Positions 17,157-36,494 of a stretch of DNA of 64,000 bases are shown piece by piece. Source of the stretch: a phage; the NCBI GenBank assembly GCA_011939005.1, contig GCA_011939005.1_4858.1; one strand, given 5' to 3'. Each line of letters begins with the position of its first letter. The stretch's first letter is position 1. Position numbers and translations under genes: made by a program. The notes under the pieces are model-generated. The model made no database searches, had not been told where the DNA came from, and worked only from the letters and a program-made list of their open reading frames with translations.

Positions 17157-17340
17157 GGTACTGCACTCCTCGTTAGGTTAAAAGTCAAGGTCAACTACAA
17201 AACAAAAGGATGTCGGTATCCTACGGATACCTCCGTTTATGTTCGCATCCAATACATAAACCCCCTTACCCCCGTACTCTCCTCGATTGTCAAACGATGA
17301 GATCGAAACGTAAAAAAGTGTAGTATGAGAGGAGGGTGGT

Positions 17341-18273
17341 ATGAACAAATCTAAGTCAGGGTTGCACATCTTCTCGATAGGTATCGTCGCGGAAGATAAA
17401 CCTCGTGGTGCCACTCGAGTTAAAGTCATCCCTATCGAAGTTAACTTTATTAATCCAACAGCTGTCGATGCAACAGAGACGCCTGTAGAGAAGCAACACA
17501 ACAGTTTAAGTGGTACTGACAACCTTACTGTAAAGCAAGGTAATGCCATCACTGCAAAATGGATGAAGTCCAACAGCAACCGGGTTAACCCTCCGGATGT
17601 GAAAAAAGAAGACTACGTAAGAATCTGGCGTATCGGTGAAACCGATATGTACTTCTGGGAAGATTTAAACAACAGTAACGTTAAGCGACTGGAAGATGGG
17701 GTATACGCCTGGTCTGCTGACCCAGTAAACCAGATGGCCGATGACCTCTCTAACGCCTACGTACTGAATATCTCCCCGATGGATGGTCACGTTACTTTAC
17801 GTACCAGTATGACTAACGGCGAGAAAAATGCGTATTTGCTCCAGCTGAATACCCGTGACGGGTTTTGCCAGTTAGTGGATGACGAAGGGCGTAAGTTCTA
17901 CCTCAACTCTCCAGAGGATGACTTAGGGTTTGAAAACGCCTGCCGGTCGAAGATTAATATCAATAAAGAGGACGCTTTCATTTATGCTAAACGTTCTATT
18001 AATCTCGAGACAAAGACGATTAACGAGAAGTGCGAAACTCGCAACTCTACAGCGTCGAAAAACATGGCATGGAAGACTGAAGACTGGAAGACCACATGCC
18101 CAACGAATCTATTTACCGGTAACCTGGAAGTAGGTAAAGATTTCCTCTATAACGGCAAAGGTGAAGGTAAGGGCACATTCACAGTTACCGAATCGGTTAT
18201 CGGCGGCATCACCTTTACTCTTCACGTACATACTGGCCATGGTCCGGGCAACGACACCAGTACACCACACTAA
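17341..18273 (+). CDS. putative central tail spike / baseplate hub protein (gpV/gp138-like apex)
   Basis: Strong RBS gaggagggtgg; C-terminus ...GITFTLHVHTGHGPGN contains an HxH motif like the iron-binding apex of membrane-piercing spikes; assignment by analogy only. Confidence 0.5.
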   Translation: MNKSKSGLHIFSIGIVAEDKPRGATRVKVIPIEVNFINPTAVDATETPVEKQHNSLSGTDNLTVKQGNAITAKWMKSNSNRVNPPDVKKEDYVRIWRIGETDMYFWEDLNNSNVKRLEDGVYAWSADPVNQMADDLSNAYVLNISPMDGHVTLRTSMTNGEKNAYLLQLNTRDGFCQLVDDEGRKFYLNSPEDDLGFENACRSKININKEDAFIYAKRSINLETKTINEKCETRNSTASKNMAWKTEDWKTTCPTNLFTGNLEVGKDFLYNGKGEGKGTFTVTESVIGGITFTLHVHTGHGPGNDTSTPH

Positions 18274-18480: not shown

Positions 18481-18690
18481 ATGAGCATTCGTGAAATCAC
18501 CGCAGGCAGCGACGTTTCTGGTCTGGTAGAAGCAGGCACCGTTCAGGTTTCTGGACTGAGCACCGTTACCGAAGTTACCGAAGCGCTGGCTAAGAAAGCC
18601 GAAGCTGAAGGCGGCGTAGCATTTAAAGTTACCGCTTGCGGCGGCAACAACAAAATGTTCGGCAACGCCATCTATTACGTAAACGCGTAA
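18481..18690 (+). CDS. DUF1471 (YdgH/BhsA/McbA-like) domain protein, no signal peptide
   Basis: GTVQVSG...LAKKAEAEGGVAFKVTACGGNNKMFGNAIYYVNA matches the BhsA-family pattern G.h.LDE.LA.KA.E.GA..F+ITS....N.L.GTA.IYK; own terminator. Confidence 0.6.
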   Translation: MSIREITAGSDVSGLVEAGTVQVSGLSTVTEVTEALAKKAEAEGGVAFKVTACGGNNKMFGNAIYYVNA

Positions 18691-18702: not shown

Positions 18703-18761
18703 CAAAAAAAGATATAGGTACCCTACTCCCGTTGGGAGTAGGGTTTACCTTTTATTTTTTT
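18703..18761. terminator. bidirectional rho-independent terminator
   Basis: Hairpin ccctactccc-gtt-gggagtaggg flanked by A-run and T-run between convergent genes. Confidence 0.7.
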
Positions 18762-20014
18762 CGTGCTTTGTAGCGATGCATTTCAACAAATGGCTTACCC
18801 CAAGCCCCGAAAGGCCCGACGATTGCCTGCGCGTCGTTTACCAAATTCTGGTTATACCAACGCGCGTTCCCCAACAAAAAGTTTTCCCGGTCGAAGAATG
18901 TGGTATTAAAGACCCACTCCCCTTCTTCCCAGGTCGGCCAGTACCCTACACATTTACCAATACGGTTAAAGATAGGACCTAGCGTCTTCTTCCCATCTGG
19001 GTCAGTCGGGTCTTTTAAATAGAACCGGCCCCAGATAGCGTTGTGGCTTATTCCGTGAATCTCTTTTTCGAGATACGGGTTGTCTATCGTAAAGATAAAC
19101 GAGGATTCGTGCGTCAGCAACGCTTTTAACGTTTCTGAGTTACGAATACGTTGAACGGACGTAGGCGTACTTAAATCACCTACACCGATGGCGTCCCAAT
19201 CGTAATAGCGACGGGTTTCCAATACAATCTTCGCCACGCTAAGGTTTGGCAGACTCAGCATAATCGCACGGTCGCTGAAATAGCCCTGCGGTGGCAACCA
19301 ATGCAGAATACCCCCGATGACGAACCCAACGGTTTTCCCTGTAATGGAATCGGGTAAGGTCAACATTAACGAAGAATAGTAATCTCGCGTAGTATCGAGT
19401 TTGTTCATCGTTAAACCGGATATGGGGTAAGTCTTCACTTTACCAATATTCGCCATCACTAGACAGCCGATGTCGGGTGTGTTGGCTCTCCGCACGATGT
19501 TACCAGCACCGGTTAAGCGAACGCCCACAGGGTCAGATTGGTGCGGTACCCACTGACCGTTGATGTTGTACAGTACCCCGGTACGGTATTTTTCTTTCCA
19601 CTCATCGTCGCAGACTACAACAACGTCGTGCGCATCATCAGGGTTGAAGTCCTGAGTGTAATGGTACCCAGGAGGGCACAGGTGCGTTTCTACGGGCACA
19701 TCTGCATTAATAGACTGGTAATGTGCCTCAGCGAATTCTAACTTCGGTAGGCCTTTCCCAAGCGTTGGAATTGCGATTCCTGACTTGGTGTTTAACCAAT
19801 CTTGCAACGTGTCCGTACGGTTTTGTAAATCAGCCAGGTGATACTGGCTATAGAAGGTATATTCGGCACCTAGTGCTTCTAGTCCTACTTCGAAAAAGTG
19901 GTAGTTAGCACAAAGGGTATTTAAGGGCTGCGTGACATCGATGGTTCCCCAAGTTCGGGTGTCTCGAGAGAAGCCAAAAGCGCTGTCGGCCCGCACTTGA
20001 TAAGCAGTAGTCAC
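18752..20014 (-). CDS. hypothetical protein, probably virion-associated (420 aa)
   Basis: Long ORF with apparent GTG start and AGAGGAAA RBS; embedded in structural block. Confidence 0.6.
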   Translation of the reverse strand: MTTAYQVRADSAFGFSRDTRTWGTIDVTQPLNTLCANYHFFEVGLEALGAEYTFYSQYHLADLQNRTDTLQDWLNTKSGIAIPTLGKGLPKLEFAEAHYQSINADVPVETHLCPPGYHYTQDFNPDDAHDVVVVCDDEWKEKYRTGVLYNINGQWVPHQSDPVGVRLTGAGNIVRRANTPDIGCLVMANIGKVKTYPISGLTMNKLDTTRDYYSSLMLTLPDSITGKTVGFVIGGILHWLPPQGYFSDRAIMLSLPNLSVAKIVLETRRYYDWDAIGVGDLSTPTSVQRIRNSETLKALLTHESSFIFTIDNPYLEKEIHGISHNAIWGRFYLKDPTDPDGKKTLGPIFNRIGKCVGYWPTWEEGEWVFNTTFFDRENFLLGNARWYNQNLVNDAQAIVGPFGAWGKPFVEMHRYKARKK

Positions 20015-20081: not shown

Positions 20082-23000
20082 ATGGCTGTCGTCCCTGACC
20101 CGCACTATCAAGAACCGGGGAATATGCAGACCGGTGAAGCGGTAACGCCGATCGGTACTAAGTACCGGATGCTGTTCCCCGCACACGCCCCCTTTTATAC
20201 CACATCCCTGGTGGTCAAGAGTGGCGGCAAGAAATTAACATTAGGTGATGATTACGTCATCACCCATGCGTACGTTACGGGCATGGCACGCACTGGCCAT
20301 GTTTGTCACGGCGGCGTGTGGATTACCAACCCGAAATATCAGAGTGGCTTTACACTCGATTACCACGCAATTGGCATCGGTGAAGCCACTGCAGAAATGA
20401 TCGCCGCAGAACGAGAAGCGAATAAAGATCGCTATCCCGTGGACTGCCAATGGGATAACGTCATTGGGGATTTATATTTCCCACCGGTCGATATTAAGTT
20501 CGATTGGGAAAACTGGCGTGGCGAATCTGAGTTGATGGAAGCCATTGTTGCGGTTGGTGCTAAGCTCGGTGAAGCGATCAGTCGCGTTGACCCGATTGCT
20601 CGTAACACGTTAGACCTTCAATATCGCGCCGGCGTCACGCTTATCACGTCCGAGCAGTATGCGACGTACGACGGTACTGGCGGCTACACGTATAACGCGT
20701 CACGTCGTCGTTATTCGTTATCTTACCAGAACACGACATTCGATGCGTATTCGTTAGCGGTAAAATACCGTTTACCGAGCATTCCACCGGAAACAACGTT
20801 GAACCCAGGCGAGTTGATCGATTGGATGCTCTGTTACGCAAACGGTGGGACAAGTATCCTGCGTCTTCAGTTGAAGCAACGCGCGATTTATCTTACCTTA
20901 ACGACAGCGATTGGTTCCGGTTCGTCCAATTACAGCTATACGTTGACGACTGGCCTGACTGATACCGAGTTGGCGGGTGAGGTTGAGTTTAGCGTGGTCA
21001 GACGCGAAGGTAACGGCGTTTACGACATCACCGTTAAAACAAGCAAGCAAACCGTTAACTACAGCTTTAACGTTGACAACCCACCGAGCGAATTTGCACC
21101 AGGGTATCAGAAAACTGATGTCGCAAAATGGTTGAAGTTTAAATCGGGCGTCAACCTAAACTGGTGGGCAGGTGAGAACGATTACGTCCAGATTCGTTCA
21201 TTACCAGGCGCACCGGCACCTGACGTTAACAATGACGTGTACCAGCTGCTGGTAAAATATCACCAGATTGTCGATAAACTGTACCGTGATGCACCGGCAC
21301 ACACACACGTGCCGCGCAAGGATAACCCGCATCGCGATTCGTGGGGCGCAATCCGTGCTTTGGAGAATAACGGTATTGCTTCGGACGCGACACTGGTATA
21401 CGGAAAAACGCAACCGCAGCTGACAGATTACGTTAACAATCTGTTGCCGAAACTGTCAACGCTGGCGAATAAGCTTTTACGTTTACCGGCGGCTGCACAG
21501 TCTATCATCGGCACGTTCGGCATGAAGCCTGGCCTGACTTCAATAACGTCAGCAGTGGGTACCGATGAGTCTGAAGGCGTGGGTGCACAATTCACGGTTG
21601 ACCCGAGGGTTATCCGTTTTATTGGCCGCGATTCGCAAACCGTTAACGCCGGGAACAATCCGATTACATGGCAAGGTGGGGCTAACCAACTCATCCTTTA
21701 TCCGGATTCCCGTGGATTGGAGTTCAACGGTAAGAAACTGTTGGACCCTACTACGGTCGGGCCGTACCTGCCGGGTAACGAATCAGGTGGTGATGGACTG
21801 TTTTACGGAACATCCACAGCTACTGTAACCATTAACGGTAACGGTATTCAGTCTGTTCCGTTCATTTGTACCTTTGTTCCACCGGAGTCCGATGACCTTG
21901 GCCTGATGGCTGTCCGTTTGTTGGCTACTGAATTCGGCGATCGTGAGGACTTGGCCGCAACGCCGGCACTCATCAAGAAATTGGATCAGCAGTTTACGGG
22001 CAAGTTGGTTGCCGTTAAATCGTACATCAACGACATGCCACTGACGAGTTCTATTTACATCGATAAAACTAACTTCGGCTTATCGAACGTACAGAACATC
22101 CCAGATGTACAATTGCCGATTTCCCCGCTCCAACAAGCTGAGCTGGACAAGTATGCAGTCGTCGGTCACAAACACACTTCTGCCGCGTTCGGGATTAAGC
22201 GTGCAACAACGACGGAGTTCGGTTTAGTACAGTTCGGCACCGCGGTTGACGATGCCACTCTGGCATTAGACGGTGGTGAGGTCATCCGACAGGCGGACGC
22301 CATCACAGAGATAGAGAAGGTTGCGAAGACAGTCGACTCTGGTGCTTCAATCAACATTATTCGTTACGGTTTACCCGGCACGGATATCATTGAAAACGGC
22401 ATCACTTACACCGACTGGATGGTTACTATTAAAGCGAACGATTATTTCGTTGGTCGCGAGTACAAAGTACCTCTCTCCACATTTAACTTGGCGGAGCTAT
22501 TCCCAGCGACGCACGAAGATGCTGAGTTTGGCGTGTATGTTGACGCGGCGGGCGATGACGGCAAGTACATTATCTACGAAAATCCAAACACGGCAGAAAC
22601 TGAGACGATGACCAAAATAGGTTCCATCATCACCAGTGAAACCGGTGTGGTTTTTGTAGAAATCCGCAACGTGACGCGTTTAGGTGAGTTCCGTGAATTA
22701 GGCGAGCATATCGAGGATGATAACGCCCATATTCGTCGGGGCATGACGCAAGCTGAATTCGGATTTACTTACGGTACGGGCGGGCCTGTGTGGTCCACGG
22801 GCGCACCGGGTACAAAACGTATAGATGCTGATTGGCGTTACGCGCAGGCTAGCGGCTATACGCCTATGTTGAAAGCGGACTACGATCCGGCTGCTGATAA
22901 ATGGACGTTTAAAACAACCAGTTTATCTGTAACCGATTATCGTTTTGTCCACAACACGTTCCCGATGTTCCAGAATAACGGCATTACCGCAACGTGGACA

Positions 23001-23795
23001 CCTTTAACCGCAACAGCGGACAGTGTGCTAGAAACGGTAATTGGGTGTTGTCATCACTCGGCCACGTTCATGCACCGTATTTCTGTACTCGTCGCACGCA
23101 CCGCAGGACGTATTACCACTCCAGGCGGTGTGAGCACGTATGCGGGAATCGCGGTTAACTACGGACGTGCTGCGCAGGTTGTTATTGGCTTGAACGGCGT
23201 TACTGGTTCCGGCCATGACTGGACGGCACTTAATCCATCGGTGCGTTTCAGCCACGCGCGAACAGCGGACGGTATTTCGTTCGTGGGAACGATTAACATC
23301 GATTCCAAAACGATTAACTTTGAGCTGACGCTAACCGCGACAACAAAGACGCTGAAATACACCTTGCAGTCGACCGGCGAGTCGTGGACTGAGGATTTGT
23401 CTACCCGTCTCCGTCCTGACTATATCGACTTGACGAAACTGATTACCGATCCGAGTACGCCGATTTATCACGGCGTGGGTGGTTTGTTTAGTTCCGACAC
23501 AGAAGCGCGTTTGACCTACGCTAACCTGAACACGATGCCGACAAAGAATCGTTATTACGCCACGTTCCTTGACTATGCGATTAACTATTCCGGCTTAAAC
23601 CGCGCAAGATTCTTTACTGGCGTGGTGGATGCAGGTTCAACGATTAATGAGATGAACAGCGCGATGAGCAACTATTCATACAGTTCGTTCCGACCAGTGG
23701 ATACAGGTAAAATTCCACTGGTGGCACACCCATCCAAGATGATGACGTTCAATCCGAAAAACACGTCAGCTCGAACACTTATTATTCGTGATTAA
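20082..23795 (+). CDS. large virion structural protein (1237 aa; tail fibre/baseplate-associated, putative)
   Basis: ATG with AAAGGAG RBS; size and position upstream of further giant ORFs and a coiled-coil fibre. Confidence 0.8.
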   Translation: MAVVPDPHYQEPGNMQTGEAVTPIGTKYRMLFPAHAPFYTTSLVVKSGGKKLTLGDDYVITHAYVTGMARTGHVCHGGVWITNPKYQSGFTLDYHAIGIGEATAEMIAAEREANKDRYPVDCQWDNVIGDLYFPPVDIKFDWENWRGESELMEAIVAVGAKLGEAISRVDPIARNTLDLQYRAGVTLITSEQYATYDGTGGYTYNASRRRYSLSYQNTTFDAYSLAVKYRLPSIPPETTLNPGELIDWMLCYANGGTSILRLQLKQRAIYLTLTTAIGSGSSNYSYTLTTGLTDTELAGEVEFSVVRREGNGVYDITVKTSKQTVNYSFNVDNPPSEFAPGYQKTDVAKWLKFKSGVNLNWWAGENDYVQIRSLPGAPAPDVNNDVYQLLVKYHQIVDKLYRDAPAHTHVPRKDNPHRDSWGAIRALENNGIASDATLVYGKTQPQLTDYVNNLLPKLSTLANKLLRLPAAAQSIIGTFGMKPGLTSITSAVGTDESEGVGAQFTVDPRVIRFIGRDSQTVNAGNNPITWQGGANQLILYPDSRGLEFNGKKLLDPTTVGPYLPGNESGGDGLFYGTSTATVTINGNGIQSVPFICTFVPPESDDLGLMAVRLLATEFGDREDLAATPALIKKLDQQFTGKLVAVKSYINDMPLTSSIYIDKTNFGLSNVQNIPDVQLPISPLQQAELDKYAVVGHKHTSAAFGIKRATTTEFGLVQFGTAVDDATLALDGGEVIRQADAITEIEKVAKTVDSGASINIIRYGLPGTDIIENGITYTDWMVTIKANDYFVGREYKVPLSTFNLAELFPATHEDAEFGVYVDAAGDDGKYIIYENPNTAETETMTKIGSIITSETGVVFVEIRNVTRLGEFRELGEHIEDDNAHIRRGMTQAEFGFTYGTGGPVWSTGAPGTKRIDADWRYAQASGYTPMLKADYDPAADKWTFKTTSLSVTDYRFVHNTFPMFQNNGITATWTPLTATADSVLETVIGCCHHSATFMHRISVLVARTAGRITTPGGVSTYAGIAVNYGRAAQVVIGLNGVTGSGHDWTALNPSVRFSHARTADGISFVGTINIDSKTINFELTLTATTKTLKYTLQSTGESWTEDLSTRLRPDYIDLTKLITDPSTPIYHGVGGLFSSDTEARLTYANLNTMPTKNRYYATFLDYAINYSGLNRARFFTGVVDAGSTINEMNSAMSNYSYSSFRPVDTGKIPLVAHPSKMMTFNPKNTSARTLIIRD

Positions 23796-23807
23796 GGAGA
23801 TTTTTGA

Positions 23808-26800
23808 ATGAAAACGTATCCTTACGATCCTCGGGGTGTAAATCCTGAGTGTCACTTCATCGAGGAACGTATCATCGACTCCGACAATCCTAACGATCGG
23901 GTGGTGATGCTAGATCATCGCCCGTTTTTCGAAGGATTGGTGGTAAGGCTCGCCGGCTCGTCCATACCGCTTACCCGCGGGACGGACTATGAGCTGGAGT
24001 ATGCTTTAACACCGTTGGACGACTCGGTGACGACCCCGGTGTTTTGCGGGGTGCATCTTATTAACCCTAAACTGCGTGGTGCGGTGGTCTTTGAAGGCCA
24101 GATGCTCGGGGGTACGTTTTACAGTGGTTTGATTGAGATGTTGGATGAGCTAGTTAAGGCACTCAACAATCCAACGGCTGCAGATTGGCTGCTTTTAGGT
24201 AATCGACCTTCCCTGTACCCAGCCACCCCTGCAGCGGTGGCTTGGTCAGACATGCTGAATAAAAAGTATGTTGCCTCTGCAGTGCATGATGTGGAGTTAG
24301 ATGCCGGGGCGGCCAACGAGCAGATTCGTGAAAAGCTTACTGAGCTGAAAGATGCGGTTTTGGGCTTAGGAACTGAAATCGCCGCATTTAACTACCCCGG
24401 ACACATTGCGTCGACTAACCCTCATGGGACTACCGCGGCGCAGGCCGGTGCGCATCCTGTCAACCTGAAAACGCCAGATACTTTCCTGGCGTATGGAAAG
24501 ACGTTGCGTCAGTTAACCAGCGAGGTCCGTGCACTGGGTCTGCAACAATCGGATATCGACAAGTACATTTCTAAATGGGTATCGAAAGAATCCAAAGGGG
24601 TGTTTAATGCGACGATATCCGGTACTCGTGCCCTGTTCCGTTCTCCTGCTGGTGAATCCGAAATTGTGTTCTCTGCTGAGGCATTCACTCTTAAATCTAA
24701 TGGCTCTGTTGTGTTGGCGTGTGGGTATGCCGACACTACTGGAACCGTCCGGTTTATGGAGTGGAAAGCAGGCATCAATACATTACGTATTGAGTCGACT
24801 GGCAGTGCCTTGGGGATGGATAAGCTGACGCTTAATGGTACGACGTTACTGACCACAACTGCTCTCATGGGCTATCAACAAGACCCTGGTACCGGCGGTG
24901 GTACCGTTGACCCGGATGACAACAAACTGTACATTAGCGGGGTGAACGGCATCACTTTCACGGGTAAAGGGTCAAAAGCCGATCCCGTCACCGGGAAGGT
25001 CACAGCCAAACCCGCGACGACCTCTGAACCAGGCGTTGTGACGCTGACTGATAAGCCGAGCGATGTAGTCAAAGGGCAAGCAGCCACCCCGTCGGCGCTT
25101 TTGCCGTATGAGGGCGACCTGTCTTCGTACGTCAGGAAGACAACGCTGCTGAATAACCAGCCGATGAACACTGGTAGTCGAACGCTGACGAAAAAGGATT
25201 TAGGTTTAGACTTGGCTGATAACACAGCTGACGTCGATAAACCACTTTCTGATGCGTTGGCAGAAGCAGTTACCGGTCTTAGTGATAAAGGTCACCATCA
25301 CAACTTCGCTGATTTACAGATTCCAACAGCCTCTCAAACTGTGCCAGGTATCGCACGATACTCTACCAACTTAAACGGCTTGGCGGATAATCGCGGCGTT
25401 ACCCCGAATGTTCTGAACGATCTGTCAAAACGTTTAGACGTAGTTGCAGCTGCGCTAGCAAACGCGAAAGAGGATTCCGTGACCGATTTTGCCGCTGTGC
25501 GTGGTAAGACTTGGACTGTGGGATCTACACGTACCACCCTCGCCGTAACGGATTTGAATTATTTCTATCTGTTAAATGGTGCACGTAAAGAGGGGACGGT
25601 ATCTGGTTCGATAGACCTGCAAACCACCCCGATGTTCCAGTGGTTCTCTCCAGATAACCGTATGGAAAGAACGTGGCAGAACGCGGTAATTAATATCGGT
25701 GACGGTATTGATTTTAGTGGGTTTGAGGTTGCCGTCCCGGAAACGAACTACGGTGCGCAGATTGGGTTAACGGCAACCGGCATGGGTGACTTATCGGTTG
25801 TTAACCTTTTAGCAAAAACGTGGGTTCGTTGCGATACAGGTAAACTACGTATTTGGGTTCGTGGCGGTGGTGCTGTTTCTGTTTATCTGGACGGTGTAAT
25901 TATCGGTGCGGGTATTACAGAAGCGGGGTATCTGGAGGCGACTGTCAAAGAGGGGTGGAAGCAACATTGCCTGGCGTTTCGTGCGGAATGTAACAATAGC
26001 GCGAAAGCAGCTGCTATACGCTTCACCATTTACGATGGTGATTACCCGGTTGCGGTGTCGGACAAAAACACCAAAGTTGCCCGCCTGCAGGAGTTTGTTA
26101 AGACCGCGAACGGTTTACGACATTATCTTTACGTGAACATGATAACCAACGCATTGTATTCACGTGCGGAACCCATTGTGGACACGGAAGGTATTAACCT
26201 GGAGCGTGGGTACATTGGTTACATTGATGTACCCGAGACGGGATTGGTTGCAGGTACGACTTACGAGTTTGAAACGACGTTTGATTTTGGCATGGCGTCC
26301 GAACTTAAACGGCACTTCGAAACACGTCTGGCGCACGGAGTGAGTAATGCCGACTGGTCGTTGACGGATAACCCAAAAATGTTACCGCTAAACAAAGTCG
26401 ATCCGTTGCCTAAACAGTGGCTTTATGCGTACCCTAATAGTCCAGTTTCTGGTAACCACTATATTCGATTAGACCGAGGGTTATTCGATTATAAATTTGA
26501 TAGTACCATTTCAAGCCTAGTGTTTGTTGGAGCGGTTGTCTCCACAGAAAGCGCATCACCGTACTGCTGGTTTACACCAAGCAACCCGAAAGAAAAAGGG
26601 ATGGCGACGTTTGAAGGTTCTGTGGTGGTCGATGTTGATTTGTCGGAAGCACAAACAGTTCGCGTTCGCGATATCACATTAAACTTCATGGCCCCGTCTG
26701 CAGATGATAAAAGCAAGACCAGGGTACTGAGATGGAGTGGCAATCGTCCAGAATTGAATTGTGGCTTCATCACGTCTCCTTATAACCAAGCAACTGGAGG

Positions 26801-27938
26801 CATCATCTCGACCACGCAGGGCAGTGTTACAAATAAGGTGCTTGAAAATCCGAGGGTAATTAAAAACCTGACGAGCCAATCTACCGAGTGTTTAGATTTT
26901 CTTTCGGTTCATACCGATAGTGAGCTTGCGCCGCTTGGAGATCGTTGGCTTGTACGTTATCGATACATTGTTGATACGCAGGTACTGCGCATCTCAATGG
27001 TTTCTAAGTTGATAGCCAATCCGCTGGTGCAGGTTTACGAAATGGAATACGACATTCCGTTTGATGCGATCGATTACTTTAAAGGTGGGGCGCTAGCCAT
27101 CCACGTTTCCGGTATTGAAACTGGAGACAACGTGACTATTAACCACGGTTTGATGCAGCCGATCATCTCAGATGTGGATATAAATCGTTTCCATTATTTA
27201 CGTTCACTGTTTGAGTCGTATATTGAAAGGACACCAGATAGACAGTCTTCCGGCCACGAGGAGATGACAGTAACAACGGTACCTTTTGCGTCATTTGGAG
27301 ATAACGTTGATCACCCGGTTACGGAATACATCACGATGTCTGCTGCAAGTGAGGGTTATCCGGAACTTGCACCGAACGGTAAACTCCCAGCGCCGTTTTA
27401 TAAAGGGCTGCAGAAACGTGGTGCTCCGCTACTTGAGTCGGCTCCTGCCGACTATACGTCTAACGGTGGTGAATGGAAGTACGGCTTTATGCGGACTTAT
27501 CGCCCGACTCAAACTGAGCGTTTTGTGTCGGTAAATGGGACAATGCTCTCTAACTACCCCGGATATATCGTCGTGGGTAGTGAGAAAATTCCGGGTAATG
27601 TTATACCTTTCAGTGCGTCGACAACAGCTGTTCGGATATCCAGGACTCTTGCCCGCACGAAACCGATGCAGCCAATTCACATCGTGTTCGTGCCTCCGGA
27701 AGGTTCTGTGCCGCCGCTGCAAGCGAAGTTCACTATTAATGGTGTGGGTAGTAGTGGTAATCCGATGTTCGTGATTACTGAAACGACACCGGTGGAACTT
27801 CGCACGGGTGGCGAGACGATTCTCATTGAGAAGCGTAATCCATTCCACATCCCCACCAGGACATGGGATTGGATTTTACAAACGTTGGATACTGAACGTA
27901 GAAACGAAGGCAACAACTCGGGTGAGTGGGCCTCTTAG
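23808..27938 (+). CDS. large virion structural protein (1376 aa; tail fibre/adhesin-like, putative)
   Basis: ATG with AAGGAGA RBS 13 nt after previous stop. Confidence 0.8.
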   Translation: MKTYPYDPRGVNPECHFIEERIIDSDNPNDRVVMLDHRPFFEGLVVRLAGSSIPLTRGTDYELEYALTPLDDSVTTPVFCGVHLINPKLRGAVVFEGQMLGGTFYSGLIEMLDELVKALNNPTAADWLLLGNRPSLYPATPAAVAWSDMLNKKYVASAVHDVELDAGAANEQIREKLTELKDAVLGLGTEIAAFNYPGHIASTNPHGTTAAQAGAHPVNLKTPDTFLAYGKTLRQLTSEVRALGLQQSDIDKYISKWVSKESKGVFNATISGTRALFRSPAGESEIVFSAEAFTLKSNGSVVLACGYADTTGTVRFMEWKAGINTLRIESTGSALGMDKLTLNGTTLLTTTALMGYQQDPGTGGGTVDPDDNKLYISGVNGITFTGKGSKADPVTGKVTAKPATTSEPGVVTLTDKPSDVVKGQAATPSALLPYEGDLSSYVRKTTLLNNQPMNTGSRTLTKKDLGLDLADNTADVDKPLSDALAEAVTGLSDKGHHHNFADLQIPTASQTVPGIARYSTNLNGLADNRGVTPNVLNDLSKRLDVVAAALANAKEDSVTDFAAVRGKTWTVGSTRTTLAVTDLNYFYLLNGARKEGTVSGSIDLQTTPMFQWFSPDNRMERTWQNAVINIGDGIDFSGFEVAVPETNYGAQIGLTATGMGDLSVVNLLAKTWVRCDTGKLRIWVRGGGAVSVYLDGVIIGAGITEAGYLEATVKEGWKQHCLAFRAECNNSAKAAAIRFTIYDGDYPVAVSDKNTKVARLQEFVKTANGLRHYLYVNMITNALYSRAEPIVDTEGINLERGYIGYIDVPETGLVAGTTYEFETTFDFGMASELKRHFETRLAHGVSNADWSLTDNPKMLPLNKVDPLPKQWLYAYPNSPVSGNHYIRLDRGLFDYKFDSTISSLVFVGAVVSTESASPYCWFTPSNPKEKGMATFEGSVVVDVDLSEAQTVRVRDITLNFMAPSADDKSKTRVLRWSGNRPELNCGFITSPYNQATGGIISTTQGSVTNKVLENPRVIKNLTSQSTECLDFLSVHTDSELAPLGDRWLVRYRYIVDTQVLRISMVSKLIANPLVQVYEMEYDIPFDAIDYFKGGALAIHVSGIETGDNVTINHGLMQPIISDVDINRFHYLRSLFESYIERTPDRQSSGHEEMTVTTVPFASFGDNVDHPVTEYITMSAASEGYPELAPNGKLPAPFYKGLQKRGAPLLESAPADYTSNGGEWKYGFMRTYRPTQTERFVSVNGTMLSNYPGYIVVGSEKIPGNVIPFSASTTAVRISRTLARTKPMQPIHIVFVPPEGSVPPLQAKFTINGVGSSGNPMFVITETTPVELRTGGETILIEKRNPFHIPTRTWDWILQTLDTERRNEGNNSGEWAS

Positions 27939-27973
27939 GACGGACTGCCTACGGGCGGGTAGTCCGTAGGTAA

Positions 27974-28011
27974 ACCGCCCTTCCGTTATTGGGAGGGCGG
28001 TCTCCGTTTTA
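27974..28011 (+). terminator. intra-operon hairpin / possible attenuator
   Basis: Stem accgccc/gggcggt followed by ctccgttttatt between two giant ORFs. Confidence 0.4.
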
Positions 28012-28033
28012 TTACAGATTAGGAGTGTTTGCA

Positions 28034-31000
28034 ATGCCGAGAGAAGATGCGGCGCAGTTTAACGGTACCCTCAGTACCGCTACTTACCCGAACCGTTATT
28101 CGACGGTCATTCCCGTCGAAGCACCGTTCTATCGCATCGGGTTAACGTTAACCGTTACCGATAAAACAACCGGAACCAAACGCAAGTTAATAGAAGGTCT
28201 TGATTATTTCTTAGGACATTACTTCCAGGAATTAGCCGAGGCTGAGAACGATGCAATATACGGCAGCATAATGCTGCTGAACGCCACAGAGGTAGAATAC
28301 GAGTTATTGTCGGTTGGTCGACAGTATCGCATCCCTGCTTCTGAAATCGGCAAGTATCTGGTTAAGACGGATATGAAAGACCCGCGCAACTGCGATTGGT
28401 CTGAGCTGATGAAATATCCGCCGATTATCTCGCCAATCGACCCGCCAAAAGATCTCGAAGAAGCCATCCTTCGCGATGAAATCGTAAAGGCGTTGGAAGA
28501 TATCCGTCTGGGTATTTTAGAACGTGCCCACGAACTGGATGAGGCTTTTGCGGAAGTTACTGATTTGATTTATCAGAACGGTAAAAAGGTGTTTGATGAC
28601 GAAATGTATCAACACCACCTGATTAAAAATGCACATGGTTACACCTGCGGTGACATTGGCGCTCTCCCGGTACTCGGCAAAGCCGTAGATGCGACTAAGG
28701 CATTCGGACGTACCCTGGCAGAGCTAGTGACGTTAATGTCTACCAGTGGCATCCAACAGAAACACGTTGACATGCTTCTGGATAATACCCTGGGTGATTT
28801 ACTGGGCCGTATGCGTGTTCTGAATAACGACGCGATTACGTTCCAAACAACGTCTGGTCACGTTATCAGCATGAAGGGTGAGAAGTTCATCATCACCTCG
28901 ACAAAACCGCTGGTATTAAAAGCTGACCAGGATAACAACGAACCGGGTATCGCTACGGAGTTCAGTGCTGGTCTGAACACGCTTTGGGTTCACTCGGGTA
29001 AAGCAGGTGACAAGTGGGGCGCTTATGATGCAGGTGTGCTTGCACCTGTGTATAACAGCGTGTATCTCGTTACGCCGGATATGGTTAAGATGTACTTGAC
29101 CTCGGTGAAGATACTTCCAGCAAACGCCTACTTCAAGTCCAGCGACACGTTGAAGATTTACGGCTCTGGTAAAGAAACAAACAAACTTTACATGAATGCG
29201 GAGCTGCCTGCAGCAACCACAACTGTGCAGGGTTTGTTTGCGATTACTAACCTTTCGGCGTCCGCTGCAGCATCCACAGCGATTTCCCAAAAAGCTGTTA
29301 CTGACTTGAAGAACAAACTCGACGGATATGTGGACGACACGTATACAGTCAACGGTAAAGGGTTTGTATTAGATTCAAACGGGCAGATGCATCTGACCTT
29401 AACCGCGGCAGATTTCGGTATTGAGAAGATGAACAATACCGGGCCGCTGGAGAAACCGGTTACTAATGCGTTGCGCACCGTGCTATCTGGCAAAGCGCTT
29501 ACAACGCACACCCACACCATTGCCGATCTCGATAACGTGCCGTACGCATCCACGTCTGTTACAGGTTTGGCTAAACTGTGGGATGCTATTGACACCACAA
29601 CAGATAAGATGGTTACTTCGCGTCAAGGCTTCTTGCTTGAACAGAAGATTGACACGCTGAATGACAAGATTGCTACGTTATTACCGGCGTGGACTGTCGG
29701 CGGATCATCGTACGGCAACAATAACTTCTTGCCTATACCTGTCCAGGGGAACTACGAAGGGTATACCAAAAACCAAACCTGGCAGAAAGGTTTGGCGCGT
29801 TACGAGTCTGGTAAGGTTTACTCGCTCCGTAACGGTTCTAACGGGAACCCACCAGGTGACTGGGCTATCTATTACGCCTATGCTGATGTGTCGCCAAGCA
29901 ATACGCTGGAAAATATGCAGCAGACGTCCGTACGCTATCGACCCGCTGGAATGTCGGCGTATCCTGGGGTGAATCTGGTTGCTATTGTGATTACCGGTAC
30001 CGATGCAATGATCTGCTTAGGCAGTGACGGTGCGTACTACCTGGTCATCTTCGATGGGACGATTGACCATGCAAAACATCATCGTGTTGTTAAAGTGGTG
30101 TTGGGTGATTACAAGAACGGTAATGGTGCGGGCACAGTAACGACAGCACCGTGGGCTCCAAACGCTTCTACAGACGATTTGATTGTTTGTAATGAACGTG
30201 TCTACCTGTTGCGTACGGTGCTTACCTCCGGTAACTATTTCGTGAGTATGCGTAGCATCGCACTCAACGAACTTAATCTGGGTGGCAGCAACACGTTTGT
30301 GGCGGATGCGTTAACAGGCGGGATATTAACGTCGGGTGAAAACGTTTATCTGCGACAGGGACAGAAACGTGCACCTTCCGATGCGCTCCCAGCACCAGTT
30401 ACACAGATCTACGCAGACGCGTTAGCGAAGTGGAACAATGCAACCAACTTTGTACATGGTCCTGAGTGTAATCACGCGATTGGTGTTGATGGGCTGAGCT
30501 TTCGTGTTGGTTTAACTCCAACGGTTTGGTTTGCTTCTACTACAGGGCAAACTATTAACTTTAAACAATGGGTGTCAAGCTTTGTTGTCGACTGTAGCGC
30601 ATTAACGGTAACGCTGGAAGGGGCTGATCGATTCCCTATTGTGGCTGATCTTACCACGGTTCGTTATAACGGTGGTACTGAGATTGGGATTCCAAGCCGG
30701 AAGTGGGGCGAAGGTCAAGCTAATAACCGAACCTTTGCAACATCGCAAGACAAGTATATCGTTTCGCAGGGACATGCAGGCGATCGCGACCTAATGCCAA
30801 TTGTCACGATTACCACGTTAGACGACGGTGTGAGTTGGTACGAGTACCTGTCGTGCGACTACAACTTCACTGCCAGAAGTTTTAGTGCGGTAATGTTAAA
30901 CCAAGGTCGTGGTTCTATCTACGAGCTAGGTATGGCGTATCCACTGACTCTGGGAGCGAATTCCAGACTTATCTGGTTGTCACAGCCACGTTCCCGTTTG

Positions 31001-33217
31001 GCAATTGAAGTTGAGTTTGATCCGAACACCACTTACTCAGGTAAGGTGGGGTATGGCCCAACTAACAATCGTCGTGTAGTAGATTCTATCACGTATGAGA
31101 ATCTGTCGCAGATGTGCCACATTGTTACACCGGCGTCGCCTGGTACAGAGTTAAACGGCTGGTATTGCACAGGGCCAGAAACATTCCCTTACCACAACGT
31201 TTCTGGCACTTTCACGATTCATGCCGATCGGTTGACGCTGTCACAGGCCGAATGGGATAAGATGAAGCAGATGATCATCGACGGTGCACCGGCAGGCGCT
31301 GCGAATGGTTATGCTTCGGAATTTATCCTTGCCGCAAATAACGCAGGAAAGGCATTGTTCTCCGTTTGGTTCATCGGCATTGGTACGGCCACACCGCTCA
31401 CGTTAGCACAAGTAGCATGTACGCGTACTGTGAACAACGTTAACGTGTTGGATATCTACTACTTTACACTGAAACCAACAATCAGCAACGGGCAGGTAAC
31501 ATTCCCCGCAGCGATATTGGCTTTGTTTGACTTCTATAACAACCTCGACTATAGCTTGAACTATGCTACGTTGGGTGAGATAACGGGAGGAAAAACACGC
31601 CGGCCGGGACAACCTACCTTGGTGTCAGTAGATGGTACTCAGTTCGGGTTGTATCTTCCACACACGTTAACCTTGCGCCAAATTGGCGACTTGGGTGCGC
31701 TTAACTACGCTGTTGGTCTTACGCTGTCTAATGGTACTTGGACGCGTTCTTCTGCTCCACACGGCGTTGGACGTATGGCACCGTCACACACTCCAGTCAG
31801 TCCAGCTTATCTGGCACATCGCGATCAAGTGATGTTACACAACTCATCTCTCGACTACGTCTATTGTGGTGGTATCGCAACGCCGTCGAGAGATTTTGTC
31901 GCGGCTCCTAATTTTAGTGGCCCGACTGAATCGGTTGTCATTGCTGGTGTGGAAACAGCTGAAGGTTGGCTGGTATATGTGACTGAGGAAGTTGACCTGC
32001 GTTTCGGCTCGAGCACTTATAAGCTGCCTACGTGGTATATTGACCTCAGCGCAGCATTTCCAACAAACCATCAGAACCGGACATTCTACCTGCACGCCAA
32101 GGTAGAAAATGGTACACCGAAGTACGTAATGGACGTGGTTCAACATCCAGACACTGAAACGGAACTCTACATCGGGTATGTTAAAACGGGCTCGTCGCGA
32201 GTCGTCGAGACTAACGTCGAACATGCTAAGCGATTGGGGGCGGTGAAACAACTGTTGGAACATGCGGCGGTTGAGAATAAGCATGATGTGGAGGTGGGAA
32301 GGGATGCGGCAACGGGCAGACTGGCACCATTGCGTAAAGAAGCGATGGGTCCTTTGTCTATCGATGCTACGAAAGGCTATCTGGATAGTCAGTTGCTTTA
32401 TACCGTATCTGACGCACAGCGTCGCGGTAAACCGATGGTCTCCAAACGTTTCGAAGGCTTGAAAACTTTGCCGGCGTTTACTCAGGCAAACAAGTCGGGG
32501 GCGTTTTGGAAACATCCTACAACAATTGCGACGGTAACGGCCGATGAGAACGGTGAAGCGGCATCGTTGGGAATGGAGTGGGTGGGTATCCCTACGCCTG
32601 CTTTCTCTCCGACCTCAGGAATGATGATAGTGGTGATACAAAGTAAATTCGTCGTCCCAGGTACACCGGGAGTAGAAACGACCTTTAATGTCAACATCGC
32701 CCCATGGGATACGGTAGATAGATTTTTCTACAACGTCGAGGCGGAAGGTAAGGATGTTAACATTGAAGAAAATCCAGAAGTGCTAATGCCGACACCACAT
32801 ACCGTGTATCACAAACAGCATTCTCTGCCCGCAGGCGTGCCATGTACGTTTACTTTCGCTGCTGTGTTGAGTTCCCCAGCGCTTGAGATGGCCAACCAGC
32901 ATATTTGCTCTTGGCTTTTCACGGACGCGGGGGGACTACCAATCACCACCGATCTTTCGGATAGTAAGATTCAAATCTTACCATTGGGGGGAGAGACCTA
33001 CGGCACACCAGTTGTTTTGAACAGCCGTAGCTACACGTTTGTGGATGTGGCGGGTGCAATTCCGGTTGTTACCACGGGCGCTCAGGGTTTATTCCCACCA
33101 CCGATCGTGGCGTGGGATGGCGATGATCTTACGTTAACGATTGCGCACGATTGGGTGAACGAGAGAGGATGGCAACAGCCTGATATTATCCAGGTCAATC
33201 TTATGTTCCGTACCTAA
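28034..33217 (+). CDS. giant virion structural protein (about 1728 aa; tail fibre/adhesin-like, putative)
   Basis: ATG at 28034 with AGGAGTG RBS preferred over track start 27989, which lies in the hairpin. Confidence 0.8.
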   Translation: MPREDAAQFNGTLSTATYPNRYSTVIPVEAPFYRIGLTLTVTDKTTGTKRKLIEGLDYFLGHYFQELAEAENDAIYGSIMLLNATEVEYELLSVGRQYRIPASEIGKYLVKTDMKDPRNCDWSELMKYPPIISPIDPPKDLEEAILRDEIVKALEDIRLGILERAHELDEAFAEVTDLIYQNGKKVFDDEMYQHHLIKNAHGYTCGDIGALPVLGKAVDATKAFGRTLAELVTLMSTSGIQQKHVDMLLDNTLGDLLGRMRVLNNDAITFQTTSGHVISMKGEKFIITSTKPLVLKADQDNNEPGIATEFSAGLNTLWVHSGKAGDKWGAYDAGVLAPVYNSVYLVTPDMVKMYLTSVKILPANAYFKSSDTLKIYGSGKETNKLYMNAELPAATTTVQGLFAITNLSASAAASTAISQKAVTDLKNKLDGYVDDTYTVNGKGFVLDSNGQMHLTLTAADFGIEKMNNTGPLEKPVTNALRTVLSGKALTTHTHTIADLDNVPYASTSVTGLAKLWDAIDTTTDKMVTSRQGFLLEQKIDTLNDKIATLLPAWTVGGSSYGNNNFLPIPVQGNYEGYTKNQTWQKGLARYESGKVYSLRNGSNGNPPGDWAIYYAYADVSPSNTLENMQQTSVRYRPAGMSAYPGVNLVAIVITGTDAMICLGSDGAYYLVIFDGTIDHAKHHRVVKVVLGDYKNGNGAGTVTTAPWAPNASTDDLIVCNERVYLLRTVLTSGNYFVSMRSIALNELNLGGSNTFVADALTGGILTSGENVYLRQGQKRAPSDALPAPVTQIYADALAKWNNATNFVHGPECNHAIGVDGLSFRVGLTPTVWFASTTGQTINFKQWVSSFVVDCSALTVTLEGADRFPIVADLTTVRYNGGTEIGIPSRKWGEGQANNRTFATSQDKYIVSQGHAGDRDLMPIVTITTLDDGVSWYEYLSCDYNFTARSFSAVMLNQGRGSIYELGMAYPLTLGANSRLIWLSQPRSRLAIEVEFDPNTTYSGKVGYGPTNNRRVVDSITYENLSQMCHIVTPASPGTELNGWYCTGPETFPYHNVSGTFTIHADRLTLSQAEWDKMKQMIIDGAPAGAANGYASEFILAANNAGKALFSVWFIGIGTATPLTLAQVACTRTVNNVNVLDIYYFTLKPTISNGQVTFPAAILALFDFYNNLDYSLNYATLGEITGGKTRRPGQPTLVSVDGTQFGLYLPHTLTLRQIGDLGALNYAVGLTLSNGTWTRSSAPHGVGRMAPSHTPVSPAYLAHRDQVMLHNSSLDYVYCGGIATPSRDFVAAPNFSGPTESVVIAGVETAEGWLVYVTEEVDLRFGSSTYKLPTWYIDLSAAFPTNHQNRTFYLHAKVENGTPKYVMDVVQHPDTETELYIGYVKTGSSRVVETNVEHAKRLGAVKQLLEHAAVENKHDVEVGRDAATGRLAPLRKEAMGPLSIDATKGYLDSQLLYTVSDAQRRGKPMVSKRFEGLKTLPAFTQANKSGAFWKHPTTIATVTADENGEAASLGMEWVGIPTPAFSPTSGMMIVVIQSKFVVPGTPGVETTFNVNIAPWDTVDRFFYNVEAEGKDVNIEENPEVLMPTPHTVYHKQHSLPAGVPCTFTFAAVLSSPALEMANQHICSWLFTDAGGLPITTDLSDSKIQILPLGGETYGTPVVLNSRSYTFVDVAGAIPVVTTGAQGLFPPPIVAWDGDDLTLTIAHDWVNERGWQQPDIIQVNLMFRT

Positions 33218-33264
33218 CAGATAGCGCTATGGGGCAAGGAAGCCCCAATCAAAGGAGTTTGGCA

Positions 33265-34467
33265 ATGGCCGAAATCATTTATCAGTACCCGCTCGACCTT
33301 ACCGGGACATTAACGTCGAACGCCGTTACGCGGCGTATTACGTTAGGTTCTGGTAAAGTTAACCGGGCTTTTGCATTTCCTGACGGAGCTTTCTACGCGG
33401 ATACCTTCCGCTTGGCGGCTGCGAATAAACCAGGTGTCTACCCGTACAAACGCGGCACAGACTACGAACTGATTTTTGCACATACTGCATATCAGAAAAT
33501 GACCAAGAACCGCGAAGTGGTCATGGGTGTGGTGGTAACTAACTCGGCCATTCCTACTGATATCGAAGTCTCTGCGCAAGTCGTTGGTGGTTTTCAGTCC
33601 GCGAACGTCGAAGGCATCCGACAAGCGATTGCGTCGTTGAAAATTGAAGACCGCGTGGTGGACTTCAAGGATCTTCGAAACGTACCCGATACGTTCCCGT
33701 CCGCACCGACGTATAAAGACCTTGGCGATATCTACGGTTTTGAGTATATCATTACCGTACTCGCGGGGATTAAAGATGCGATTAACTCCGGCTCTGCAGT
33801 ACAGCTGGAAGAAATTAAAGGTATTCTGGGTGGTCTGAAAAACGACTTCCTCGACGCCTTAAATGCCCACATCAACGCCGAAGGTAACGTACACAATCTC
33901 GACATTCATCAGGTTAATGGCCTGACGGAGACGGAGATTCGTGCCCTGATTCAAAGTGTACAGACTGCCATTGACGCCACCATCAAAGATATCGGCGACT
34001 TAAGAGCAGCAGACACAGCGTTGGGGCAACGCATCGATGCAATTGTGGCTTCGTTAGCCGCGTGGAACGACCAGCTTAACGTGGTTGCTCAAAATTACCA
34101 GAAAATGTCGTTAGCATTAGCTAACCTTAATTCTCTGGTGTTGCAATTACAGAAGATGGTTAACGATCTTCAGTCTGCACTGAATAAAACAAATCAGCGC
34201 GTCACGGATCTTGAGAATCAGGGCAAAGACTTCCAACAGCAAATTGATAACCTGCAAGGACAAATCAACAGTCTTAAAACTCAGGTTGTAAATAACACCA
34301 ACGCAATTTCGCAGGCAAACCAGAATCTGGCGAACCATGCGGCTGCGGATAACCCACACCCGAATTACCTCCATAAACAGTATGGCGGTGTTGTGCAGGC
34401 TGCTGTTCACGTCAACAACAACCTCACCTCGCGCGACGATGTTCAAGCTGAAGCGGGTACTAAGTAA
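33265..34467 (+). CDS. coiled-coil fibre-like protein (401 aa)
   Basis: ATG at 33265 with AAAGGAG RBS; C-terminal half is a long heptad-like Q/N/L-rich coiled coil. Confidence 0.75.
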   Translation: MAEIIYQYPLDLTGTLTSNAVTRRITLGSGKVNRAFAFPDGAFYADTFRLAAANKPGVYPYKRGTDYELIFAHTAYQKMTKNREVVMGVVVTNSAIPTDIEVSAQVVGGFQSANVEGIRQAIASLKIEDRVVDFKDLRNVPDTFPSAPTYKDLGDIYGFEYIITVLAGIKDAINSGSAVQLEEIKGILGGLKNDFLDALNAHINAEGNVHNLDIHQVNGLTETEIRALIQSVQTAIDATIKDIGDLRAADTALGQRIDAIVASLAAWNDQLNVVAQNYQKMSLALANLNSLVLQLQKMVNDLQSALNKTNQRVTDLENQGKDFQQQIDNLQGQINSLKTQVVNNTNAISQANQNLANHAAADNPHPNYLHKQYGGVVQAAVHVNNNLTSRDDVQAEAGTK

Positions 34468-35584: not shown

Positions 35585-36472
35585 ATGAAAAACGATTTGC
35601 ATCTTGCGTATAAAACCACATTCAACCACCCGCTGCATCTATCTTCCCCAGATTCAGTGCGTGCACATCTCGCTGACAAAGTCAGACTGATTGCACAGAT
35701 TCCTGGTGAGTGGCCAAAGGTTCGTGGTCGCTTCTTGACCGACAAGAAGAACTACACCGTAGAAAATACGTTTAAGATCCGTGATATGGTTGCAGAGGCC
35801 ATCGTTATCTTTAACGGCGATGGTAACTCTCGCGGCGTGTTGGTTGACGGTAAGTATTTCTTCAGTGAAGGGATTCTGAACAACAGTGTCGATTTAGAAC
35901 TGATGTTTACACCGTTTGACGAACTTGAAGCAAAACCGATGGCGCGCCGTTGGTGGAGTCCGGACTATCTGGGCTCGTTCCCTTACTACTTTGTACTGGT
36001 ACCTGCCGATACGGAAACGTATTTCGACACCGAACCATACATCGATATCGAGGGGTATAAAGAACTCGGCATCACCCGTTTAGCGGACATGATGGCGTAT
36101 AGCTATAAGTTCGTGTGGGATAAAAAGCGTTCTGTCTGGTATGCGCTGACTGACGATTTTGAAATCACCAAGCGTATTCGTAAGCCGTGGATGCAACACC
36201 TGGTTCAAACTCGATATGGGGATTACCCGGCGACAGAAGCGGATTTGAGTAAGCTGGTAAGTTTCCTCTTAACGAAGGTGGATTTAACGAAAGAAGAAGC
36301 AGAAGCTGTTTCTGAGATTCGTGGTCGTTCGGTAACGTTGGCCGATTTGAAACGTCTGAACGAAAGACACGCCGACCTGAACAAAATTTTAGCTGCCTAT
36401 CACGACCCGATGTTACTGGTGCCTGGCGCTAACGTAGACGAAGATCCTTTATTCGCCATTGATTATATTTAA
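35585..36472 (+). CDS. hypothetical protein (295 aa) in radical-SAM cluster
   Basis: ATG with GGAG RBS; no recognisable motif. Confidence 0.65.
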   Translation: MKNDLHLAYKTTFNHPLHLSSPDSVRAHLADKVRLIAQIPGEWPKVRGRFLTDKKNYTVENTFKIRDMVAEAIVIFNGDGNSRGVLVDGKYFFSEGILNNSVDLELMFTPFDELEAKPMARRWWSPDYLGSFPYYFVLVPADTETYFDTEPYIDIEGYKELGITRLADMMAYSYKFVWDKKRSVWYALTDDFEITKRIRKPWMQHLVQTRYGDYPATEADLSKLVSFLLTKVDLTKEEAEAVSEIRGRSVTLADLKRLNERHADLNKILAAYHDPMLLVPGANVDEDPLFAIDYI

Positions 36473-36494
36473 AAATATACTGGAGCAACCTGCA

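Follow-up and report, generated by a model that had tools for sequence, protein, structure and literature searches.

A predicted central tail spike with an integral HxH apex in an SPN3US-type jumbo phage

The gene at positions 17341-18273 of the window, that is, of the whole 64,000-nucleotide stretch of phage DNA analyzed here, most likely (with a probability of roughly 0.88) encodes the central, membrane-piercing tail spike of a contractile jumbo phage of the SPN3US type, and this spike appears to carry an HxH apex of its own. The assignment is directly supported by the open reading frame itself, by the homology of its product to gp164 of phage phiKZ and to gp45 of phage Mu, by the conservation of the HxH motif, by the failure to find a PAAR gene in the window or in the SPN3US genome, and by the presence of a 99.7%-identical protein in virions. 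The initial annotation, made from the sequence alone, had proposed a membrane-piercing spike with an HxH apex; the proposal is supported by the homology of the body to phiKZ gp164 together with that of the apex to Mu gp45.

The Spike Gene and Its Relatives

The translation of the plus-strand reading frame agrees with the initial annotation in its length of 310 amino acids and in its C-terminal residues, ...GITFTLHVHTGHGPGNDTSTPH, which immediately precede the stop codon. Together with a 69-codon open reading frame, the spike gene forms a short unit that is closed by a strong hairpin:

17330-17335, plus strand: Shine-Dalgarno sequence AGGAGG, 5 nt before the ATG, read off the sequence
17341-18273, plus strand: central baseplate spike gene (assigned), 310 aa and stop; orthologue of SPN3US gp173 and phiKZ gp164
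18481-18690, plus strand: small open reading frame, SPN3US gp172, 69 aa, YdgH/BhsA/McbA-like; PF07338 (DUF1471), E = 3e-11
18720-18744, plus strand: terminator-like hairpin, 11-bp stem with 7 GC pairs; consensus scan, pattern match only

The hairpin is located between the convergent genes for gp172 and gp171 and is followed by a T-rich tail; judging by these sequence features, its probable role is that of a bidirectional terminator setting the spike unit apart from the fiber genes. These phages use their own RNA polymerases, and a scan for sigma-70 promoters is uninformative. On the opposite strand, a 133-codon open reading frame with a TTG start (17178-17579, minus strand) overlaps the 5' end of the spike gene and the intergenic region before it; SPN3US has no annotation for this reading frame, which probably is not a gene.

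SEGD1 and SPN3US, Salmonella jumbo phages of the genus Seoulvirus, share 99% DNA identity with the spike gene and with the window, and at 90% or above the gene is matched by 34 phage records. The protein shares 99.7% amino acid identity with SPN3US_0173 (gp173) and matches, over its full length, PHROG 3216, a 'baseplate assembly protein' of the tail category (E = 2e-122). Publicly available labels include 'baseplate assembly protein' in RefSeq and 'baseplate puncture protein' in two related records. The spike protein is accordingly an ordinary, already catalogued protein, essentially SPN3US gp173. A literature search on 'SPN3US gp173' returned only the Gp173 of an unrelated phage. In the supplementary tables of PMC5694885, mass spectrometry places SPN3US gp173 (34.6 kDa) among the proteins of low abundance in purified virions, as would be expected of a protein present in three copies; the tables list it with no assigned function.

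In several genomes of Salmonella phage SPFM (proteins P0028, P0030, P0034 and P0040-P0042), the spike open reading frame is truncated or matches only in part. These versions comprise 182-295 amino acids, with 19-34% coverage despite a DNA identity of about 94.5%, and the shortening probably reflects frameshift errors in the respective assemblies.

The Spike Body: OB-Fold and Beta-Helical Shaft

The greater part of the protein can be divided into two regions:

17341-17730, plus strand: N-terminal OB-fold domain, about aa 1-130; AlphaFold2 strands, aligned with the OB-fold of gp164, boundaries approximate
17731-18186, plus strand: beta-helical shaft, about aa 131-282; AlphaFold2 strands and Foldseek matches, boundaries approximate

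In a single-sequence phmmer search of PDB sequences, residues 6-223 match phiKZ gp164 (6ORJ, 9XPH) with E = 3e-27, and the profile of 29 homologues reaches E = 2.8e-44 against the same protein. The AlphaFold2 model, computed for the monomer with the 29-sequence alignment as input, is all-beta, with a mean pLDDT of 77.8. The OB-fold is represented by beta-strands at residues 8-16, 26-32, 70-74, 92-98, 104-108 and 120-125, and the shaft by short regular strands followed by an extended chain (pLDDT 77-92); in the last 40 residues, the pLDDT drops to 63-72. A variable insertion in the OB-fold (window 17443-17538, residues 35-66; pLDDT 41-53) may be a lineage-specific loop turned to the hub.

The initial annotation depended on an OB-fold combined with a beta-helix, and this is the architecture to which the model is closest: the best Foldseek matches in the PDB are 9XPH_I (E = 8e-16) and 6ORJ, 'Central spike of phiKZ phage tail' (E = 5e-15; TM 0.72, normalized to the target). 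Further down the list are the spikes of the Anabaena and Algoriphagus contractile injection systems, T6SS VgrG, and the spikes of P1, PVC, Mu and R2 pyocin. According to the 2026 cryo-EM atlas of phiKZ, gp164 is the trimeric central spike and consists of an OB-fold and a beta-helix; its OB-folds are touched by beta-hairpins of the gp27-like hub gp101, and the beta-helix threads the gp174 ring and ends at the monomeric tip protein gp163.1 (PMC13250141). By analogy, the OB-fold domain of the window protein is predicted to dock under a gp27-like hub, and in the trimer the shafts of the three chains are expected to wind around one another as a triple beta-helix. A Pfam scan of the protein gave no match at E values up to 10, PF18715 included, and detected neither a lysozyme nor a gp27-like domain.

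The spike family also matches chain qs of PDB entry 36za (362 aa, three copies; E = 9e-20), with the match covering the OB-fold and the shaft. The label of this chain, 'Tail terminator gp51', looks wrong; it may instead represent gp13, the spike protein of Goslar.

The Apex and the HxH Motif

Homology to phiKZ gp164 ceases at about residue 223-252, and the remainder of the protein contains the following features:

18067-18252, plus strand: homologue of the Mu gp45 C-terminal domain, aa 243-304; E = 0.003 against 3VTO/3VTN, profile E = 2e-5
18187-18270, plus strand: predicted apex (tip) domain, about aa 283-310, IGGITFTLHVHTGHGPGNDTSTPH; conserved block of the family, aligned to the apex of Mu gp45 and OBP gp146
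18223-18231, plus strand: HxH motif, H295-V296-H297; in 28 of 29 sequences of alignment A1, invariant in apex alignment A2

The C-terminal HxH motif reported in the initial annotation is indeed present, as H295-V-H297, 14 residues from the C-terminal end, and four of the seven histidines of the protein fall within the last 16 residues. An HxH within the last 25 residues arises in about 1% of 200,000 shuffles of the protein. The stronger argument is conservation of the motif, which is kept at the same aligned position in 28 of the 29 homologues, down to about 40% identity, within a block that is conserved family-wide (...I.GITF..H.H....G....P.).

The C-terminal segment matches Mu gp45 with E = 0.003 as a single sequence (3VTO/3VTN) and with E = 2e-5 as a family profile, and an apex-only profile of 63 columns yields E = 1.5e-4. 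In the alignments with Mu gp45, HxH coincides with H-I-H, and a common ...TP..FTG.vEv.K... block is located upstream, in the single-sequence comparison and with both profiles. With OBP gp146, to which the full-length family profile aligns at hhalign E = 4e-31, the motif included, HxH coincides with H-R-H. When the apex profile is compared directly with P2 gpV, HxH aligns to H197/H199, but the score falls short of significance (hhalign E = 0.016, probability 2.8%); sequence homology to gpV is therefore not claimed here, and the apex assignment rests on Mu gp45 and OBP gp146.

In P2 gpV, three copies of HxH (H197, H199) form an octahedral histidine cage with Fe, and OBP gp146 is listed in the published alignment of HxH apex spikes (bioRxiv 10.1101/2023.02.25.529910). 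An OB-fold, a beta-helix and an apex domain make up Mu gp45, and its apex contains both Fe and Ca ions (PMC11915804). By analogy with these spikes, the HxH motifs of three chains are predicted to enclose an Fe ion in a cage of six histidines.

The residues that follow the motif are less typical. The window protein has TGHGPGND where the family consensus is EQGDG and where Mu and P2 have GDSGG; in the SPN3US clade, this atypical loop also contributes a third histidine, H300. As the loop departs from GDSGG, the second (Ca) site of Mu may be lost. The same divergence (TGHGPGND compared to EQGDG in most relatives) probably explains why PF18715, 'Phage spike trimer', matches 7 of the 29 relatives (best E = 3.9e-8) but not the window protein.

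These features bear on the alternative that the protein is a central spike with the predicted apex but that the metal in the cage is not iron, or that the tip is mechanically unimportant for infection. The unusual loop with H300 would be compatible with such a spike, and so would the behavior of P2 mutants, which in the laboratory infect normally or only about two-fold worse when the apex or its histidines are removed (bioRxiv 10.1101/2023.02.25.529910). Nevertheless, HxH is very strongly conserved among the gp173 relatives and in unrelated spikes, and the metals reported are Fe in P2 gpV and Fe with Ca in Mu gp45; altogether, this alternative appears unlikely. Given that the P2 apex and its histidine cage are dispensable in laboratory infection, the functional weight of the gp173 tip is uncertain.

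Under the preferred reading, a central spike with a fused, iron-binding apex, three copies of gp173 would assemble into a trimer plugging the end of the tail tube, with the OB-folds placed under the gp27-like hub and the middle parts of the chains presumably wound into the triple beta-helix of the shaft. At the distal end, the C-terminal 25-30 residues of the chains would come together in a pointed apex that seals the shaft. There, H295 and H297 of all three chains would surround a buried metal as a His6 cage; by the precedent of P2 gpV and Mu gp45, this metal is most likely iron. Upon contraction of the sheath, this rigid point would be driven through the outer membrane of Salmonella, with the tube following behind it.

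A Fused or a Separate Tip?

In phiKZ, 201phi2-1, Psa21, Noxifer, PhiPA3, Mecenats66 and Cr30, a PAAR gene is found directly 3' of the spike gene. With phiKZ gp163.1 as the query, tblastn (E up to 1) matches 81 phage records, none of which come from Salmonella or Erwinia phages. A PAAR HMM built from 7 seed tip proteins, which covers PAAR proteins resembling these seeds, was run against six-frame open reading frames of at least 40 aa from the SPN3US genome and the window; its best hit has E = 0.3, compared to 2e-41 for the phiKZ control. No feature of the complete SPN3US genome is annotated as PAAR.

The slot of the PAAR tip gene of phiKZ-type phages is filled by the gp172 open reading frame (18481-18690). 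Members of the YdgH/BhsA/McbA family normally are small periplasmic stress or biofilm proteins of enterobacteria; gp172 has no obvious signal peptide. The small protein was considered as a candidate tip and rejected: it contains a YdgH/BhsA-like domain and does not occur among the available rows of the SPN3US virion table.

The published rule holds that spikes with a C-terminal HxH possess an Apex domain and that those without HxH have a PAAR partner (bioRxiv 10.1101/2023.02.25.529910). The C-terminus of phiKZ gp164 lacks HxH. In the window protein, the motif is present and no PAAR gene is detected, so the tip appears to be fused to the spike, in agreement with the rule.

The possibility that the window protein is a blunt spike of the phiKZ gp164 type, with an incidental HxH and in need of a separate PAAR-like tip protein, is very unlikely. 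It draws on the closest solved homologue, phiKZ gp164, which works with gp163.1, and on the fact that 116 of the best 150 representatives with a gp164-like N-terminal domain have no C-terminal HxH. However, from about residue 223-252 onward the spike is no longer homologous to gp164 and aligns with the Mu gp45 apex instead; gp164 itself lacks the HxH that 28 of the 29 relatives of the window spike retain; and no PAAR homologue resembling the 7 seeds is found beside the spike gene, elsewhere in the window or in the SPN3US genome.

Neighboring Genes

The genes that follow the spike unit can be identified as components of the baseplate periphery and the fibers:

18752-20014, minus strand: orthologue of SPN3US gp171, homologue of phiKZ gp130; PDB 9XQD chain 'PHIKZ130', E = 8e-11
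20082-34467, plus strand: four paralogues, SPN3US gp170, gp169, gp168 and gp167, with a gp131-like N-terminal domain; baseplate fiber proteins
20082-23795, plus strand: gp170, 1237 aa
23808-27938, plus strand: gp169, 1376 aa
27989-33217, plus strand: gp168, 1742 aa
33229-34467, plus strand: gp167, 412 aa

The spike gene had been described as the head of the plus-strand structural block; it is indeed on the plus strand but does not start a continuous block, as the minus-strand gene at 18752-20014 intervenes and the giant open reading frames begin only at 20082. SPN3US gp171 is an essential tail-associated protein (PMC5105663), and phiKZ gp130 is a connector of the outer baseplate beneath which the fibers dock.

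The earlier interpretation of the downstream giant open reading frames as baseplate or fiber proteins holds, and it was already in the literature: gp168, gp169 and gp170 are phiKZ gp131-like paralogues that tailless particles lack, and they have been described under the name 'Paralog family C, baseplate/tail fiber candidates'. All four proteins match phrog_2163, and the three giants cross-match each other's PHROGs. After the common N-terminal domain, the four differ in their C-terminal parts; in gp167, this part shows only coiled-coil-like, weak Pfam matches. PDB sequence searches with gp168 and gp167 returned nothing useful, and the link of these two proteins to phiKZ gp131 is based on the literature and on the common PHROGs. 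In phiKZ, the gp131 paralogues build fibers with a hetero-hexameric base, and the presence of the four paralogues suggests a hetero-oligomeric fiber base like that of phiKZ.

That the window protein is a component of a tail fiber or tailspike with an HxH metal site, and not the central spike, is extremely improbable: HxH histidine cages do stabilize trimers in phage fibers and tailspikes as well (bioRxiv 10.1101/2023.02.25.529910) and the spike gene adjoins the fiber genes, but both the sequence and the predicted fold of the first 220 residues show homology to the OB-fold and shaft of the phiKZ central spike, which is located on the three-fold axis under the hub, the protein has no similarity to the gp131-like N-terminal domain of the neighboring fiber proteins, and the low abundance of gp173 in virions fits few copies per particle.

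Past the fiber genes (window 36459-38730, plus strand), two adjoining open reading frames correspond to SPN3US genes that are annotated as radical SAM domain proteins in RefSeq, an unusual pair of enzymes for a phage structural region.

Variation of the Tip in the gp164-Type Family

Searched against 1.84 billion proteins, a profile restricted to the first 225 residues retrieves 1,494 cluster representatives at E values of 0.001 or lower. In the best 150 of the 1,494, HxH is found within the last 35 residues of 34 representatives, a few of which look like chance occurrences or truncated ends, and is absent in the 116 others. Among the same best 150, the recurrent endings without HxH are [AG]PN[VI] (27 representatives), SHGGxxCC (4), NGRxV (4) and SHGPH (3). 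The ending ...SHGGxxCC is seen in proteins P0039, P0043, P0044, P0047 and P0049, and ...SHGPH in proteins P0051-P0053; a further entry of this kind is locus L018:84-1163. By the look of their sequences, such His/Cys-rich endings could be other built-in metal-binding tips. The gene for P0039, a spike that ends in ...FSHGGGKCC, lies in an SPN3US-like gene order, with no PAAR gene in the 5 kb of sequence available.

It is tempting, if doubtful, to view the gp164-type spike as a modular platform on which tips are exchanged, including the fused HxH apex (window protein, OBP, EL), the PAAR-capped blunt end (phiKZ) and uncharacterized endings such as ...SHGG(P/K)xCC or ...SHGPH, with a rebuilt loop in the SPN3US clade. 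The change of this loop from EQGDG to TGHGPG, along with the third histidine, may alter the metals bound or their number. The tip of the window protein itself is one of the known types.

Comparison With Known Spikes

The window spike and phiKZ gp164 share a homologous OB-fold and shaft and PHROG 3216, and both belong to phiKZ-related jumbo myophages. They differ at the distal end: gp164 is a blunt beta-helix capped by the PAAR-type gp163.1, which is encoded just 3' of it, whereas the window spike has an integral HxH apex, with no PAAR gene detected in the window or in the SPN3US genome.

Mu gp45 (3VTO, 3VTN, 9KI1) has a homologous apex and the same plan of OB-fold, beta-helix and apex, but at 197 aa it is the smaller protein, and no significant sequence match is seen for its N-terminal part. 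The motif is followed by RGDSGG in Mu and by TGHGPGND in the window protein, which makes it doubtful whether the Ca site is conserved.

P2 gpV, phi92 gp138 and R-pyocin PA0616, which are iron-loaded spikes, resemble the window spike in having a fused tip and no PAAR partner. In P2 and in the window protein, HxH is located about 12-15 residues from the C-terminus and is followed by a Gly/Pro-rich tail (HTHKHPGDSGGTTGSPL and HVHTGHGPGNDTSTPH, respectively). Compared to gpV, the window spike is about 100 residues longer and has an N-terminal domain of the jumbo-phage gp164 lineage.

OBP gp146 and EL gp117 are homologous to the window spike over the full length, HxH included; the C-terminus of EL gp117 is ...LHIHGGVDPGNGTTSPPVA (...LHIHGG...). 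Both phages infect Pseudomonas, and the identity is about 28-30%. Given that these two proteins carry the motif, an HxH tip in the gp164-type family is not new.

T4 gp5/gp5.4 and T6SS VgrG/PAAR serve the same purpose, as trimeric beta-helical needles placed axially in a contractile injection machine, but have a separate PAAR tip; in addition, gp5 contains a lysozyme domain and VgrG a gp27-like fusion. The window spike shows none of these features. With Foldseek, the spikes of the VgrG and eCIS types match the model only distantly.

Implications

Beyond the identity of the gene and the comparison of phiKZ with SPN3US, these results add nothing unexpected, given that a solved orthologue of the body, the published tip rule and relatives with the same type of tip exist. 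Within this frame, the identity of one tail gene is fixed, which backs the assignment of the neighboring genes to the baseplate periphery and the fibers. PhiKZ and SPN3US present a natural comparison, with a common spike body that ends in a PAAR cap in the former and in a fused, predicted histidine-cage apex in the latter. [quoted passage not shown]
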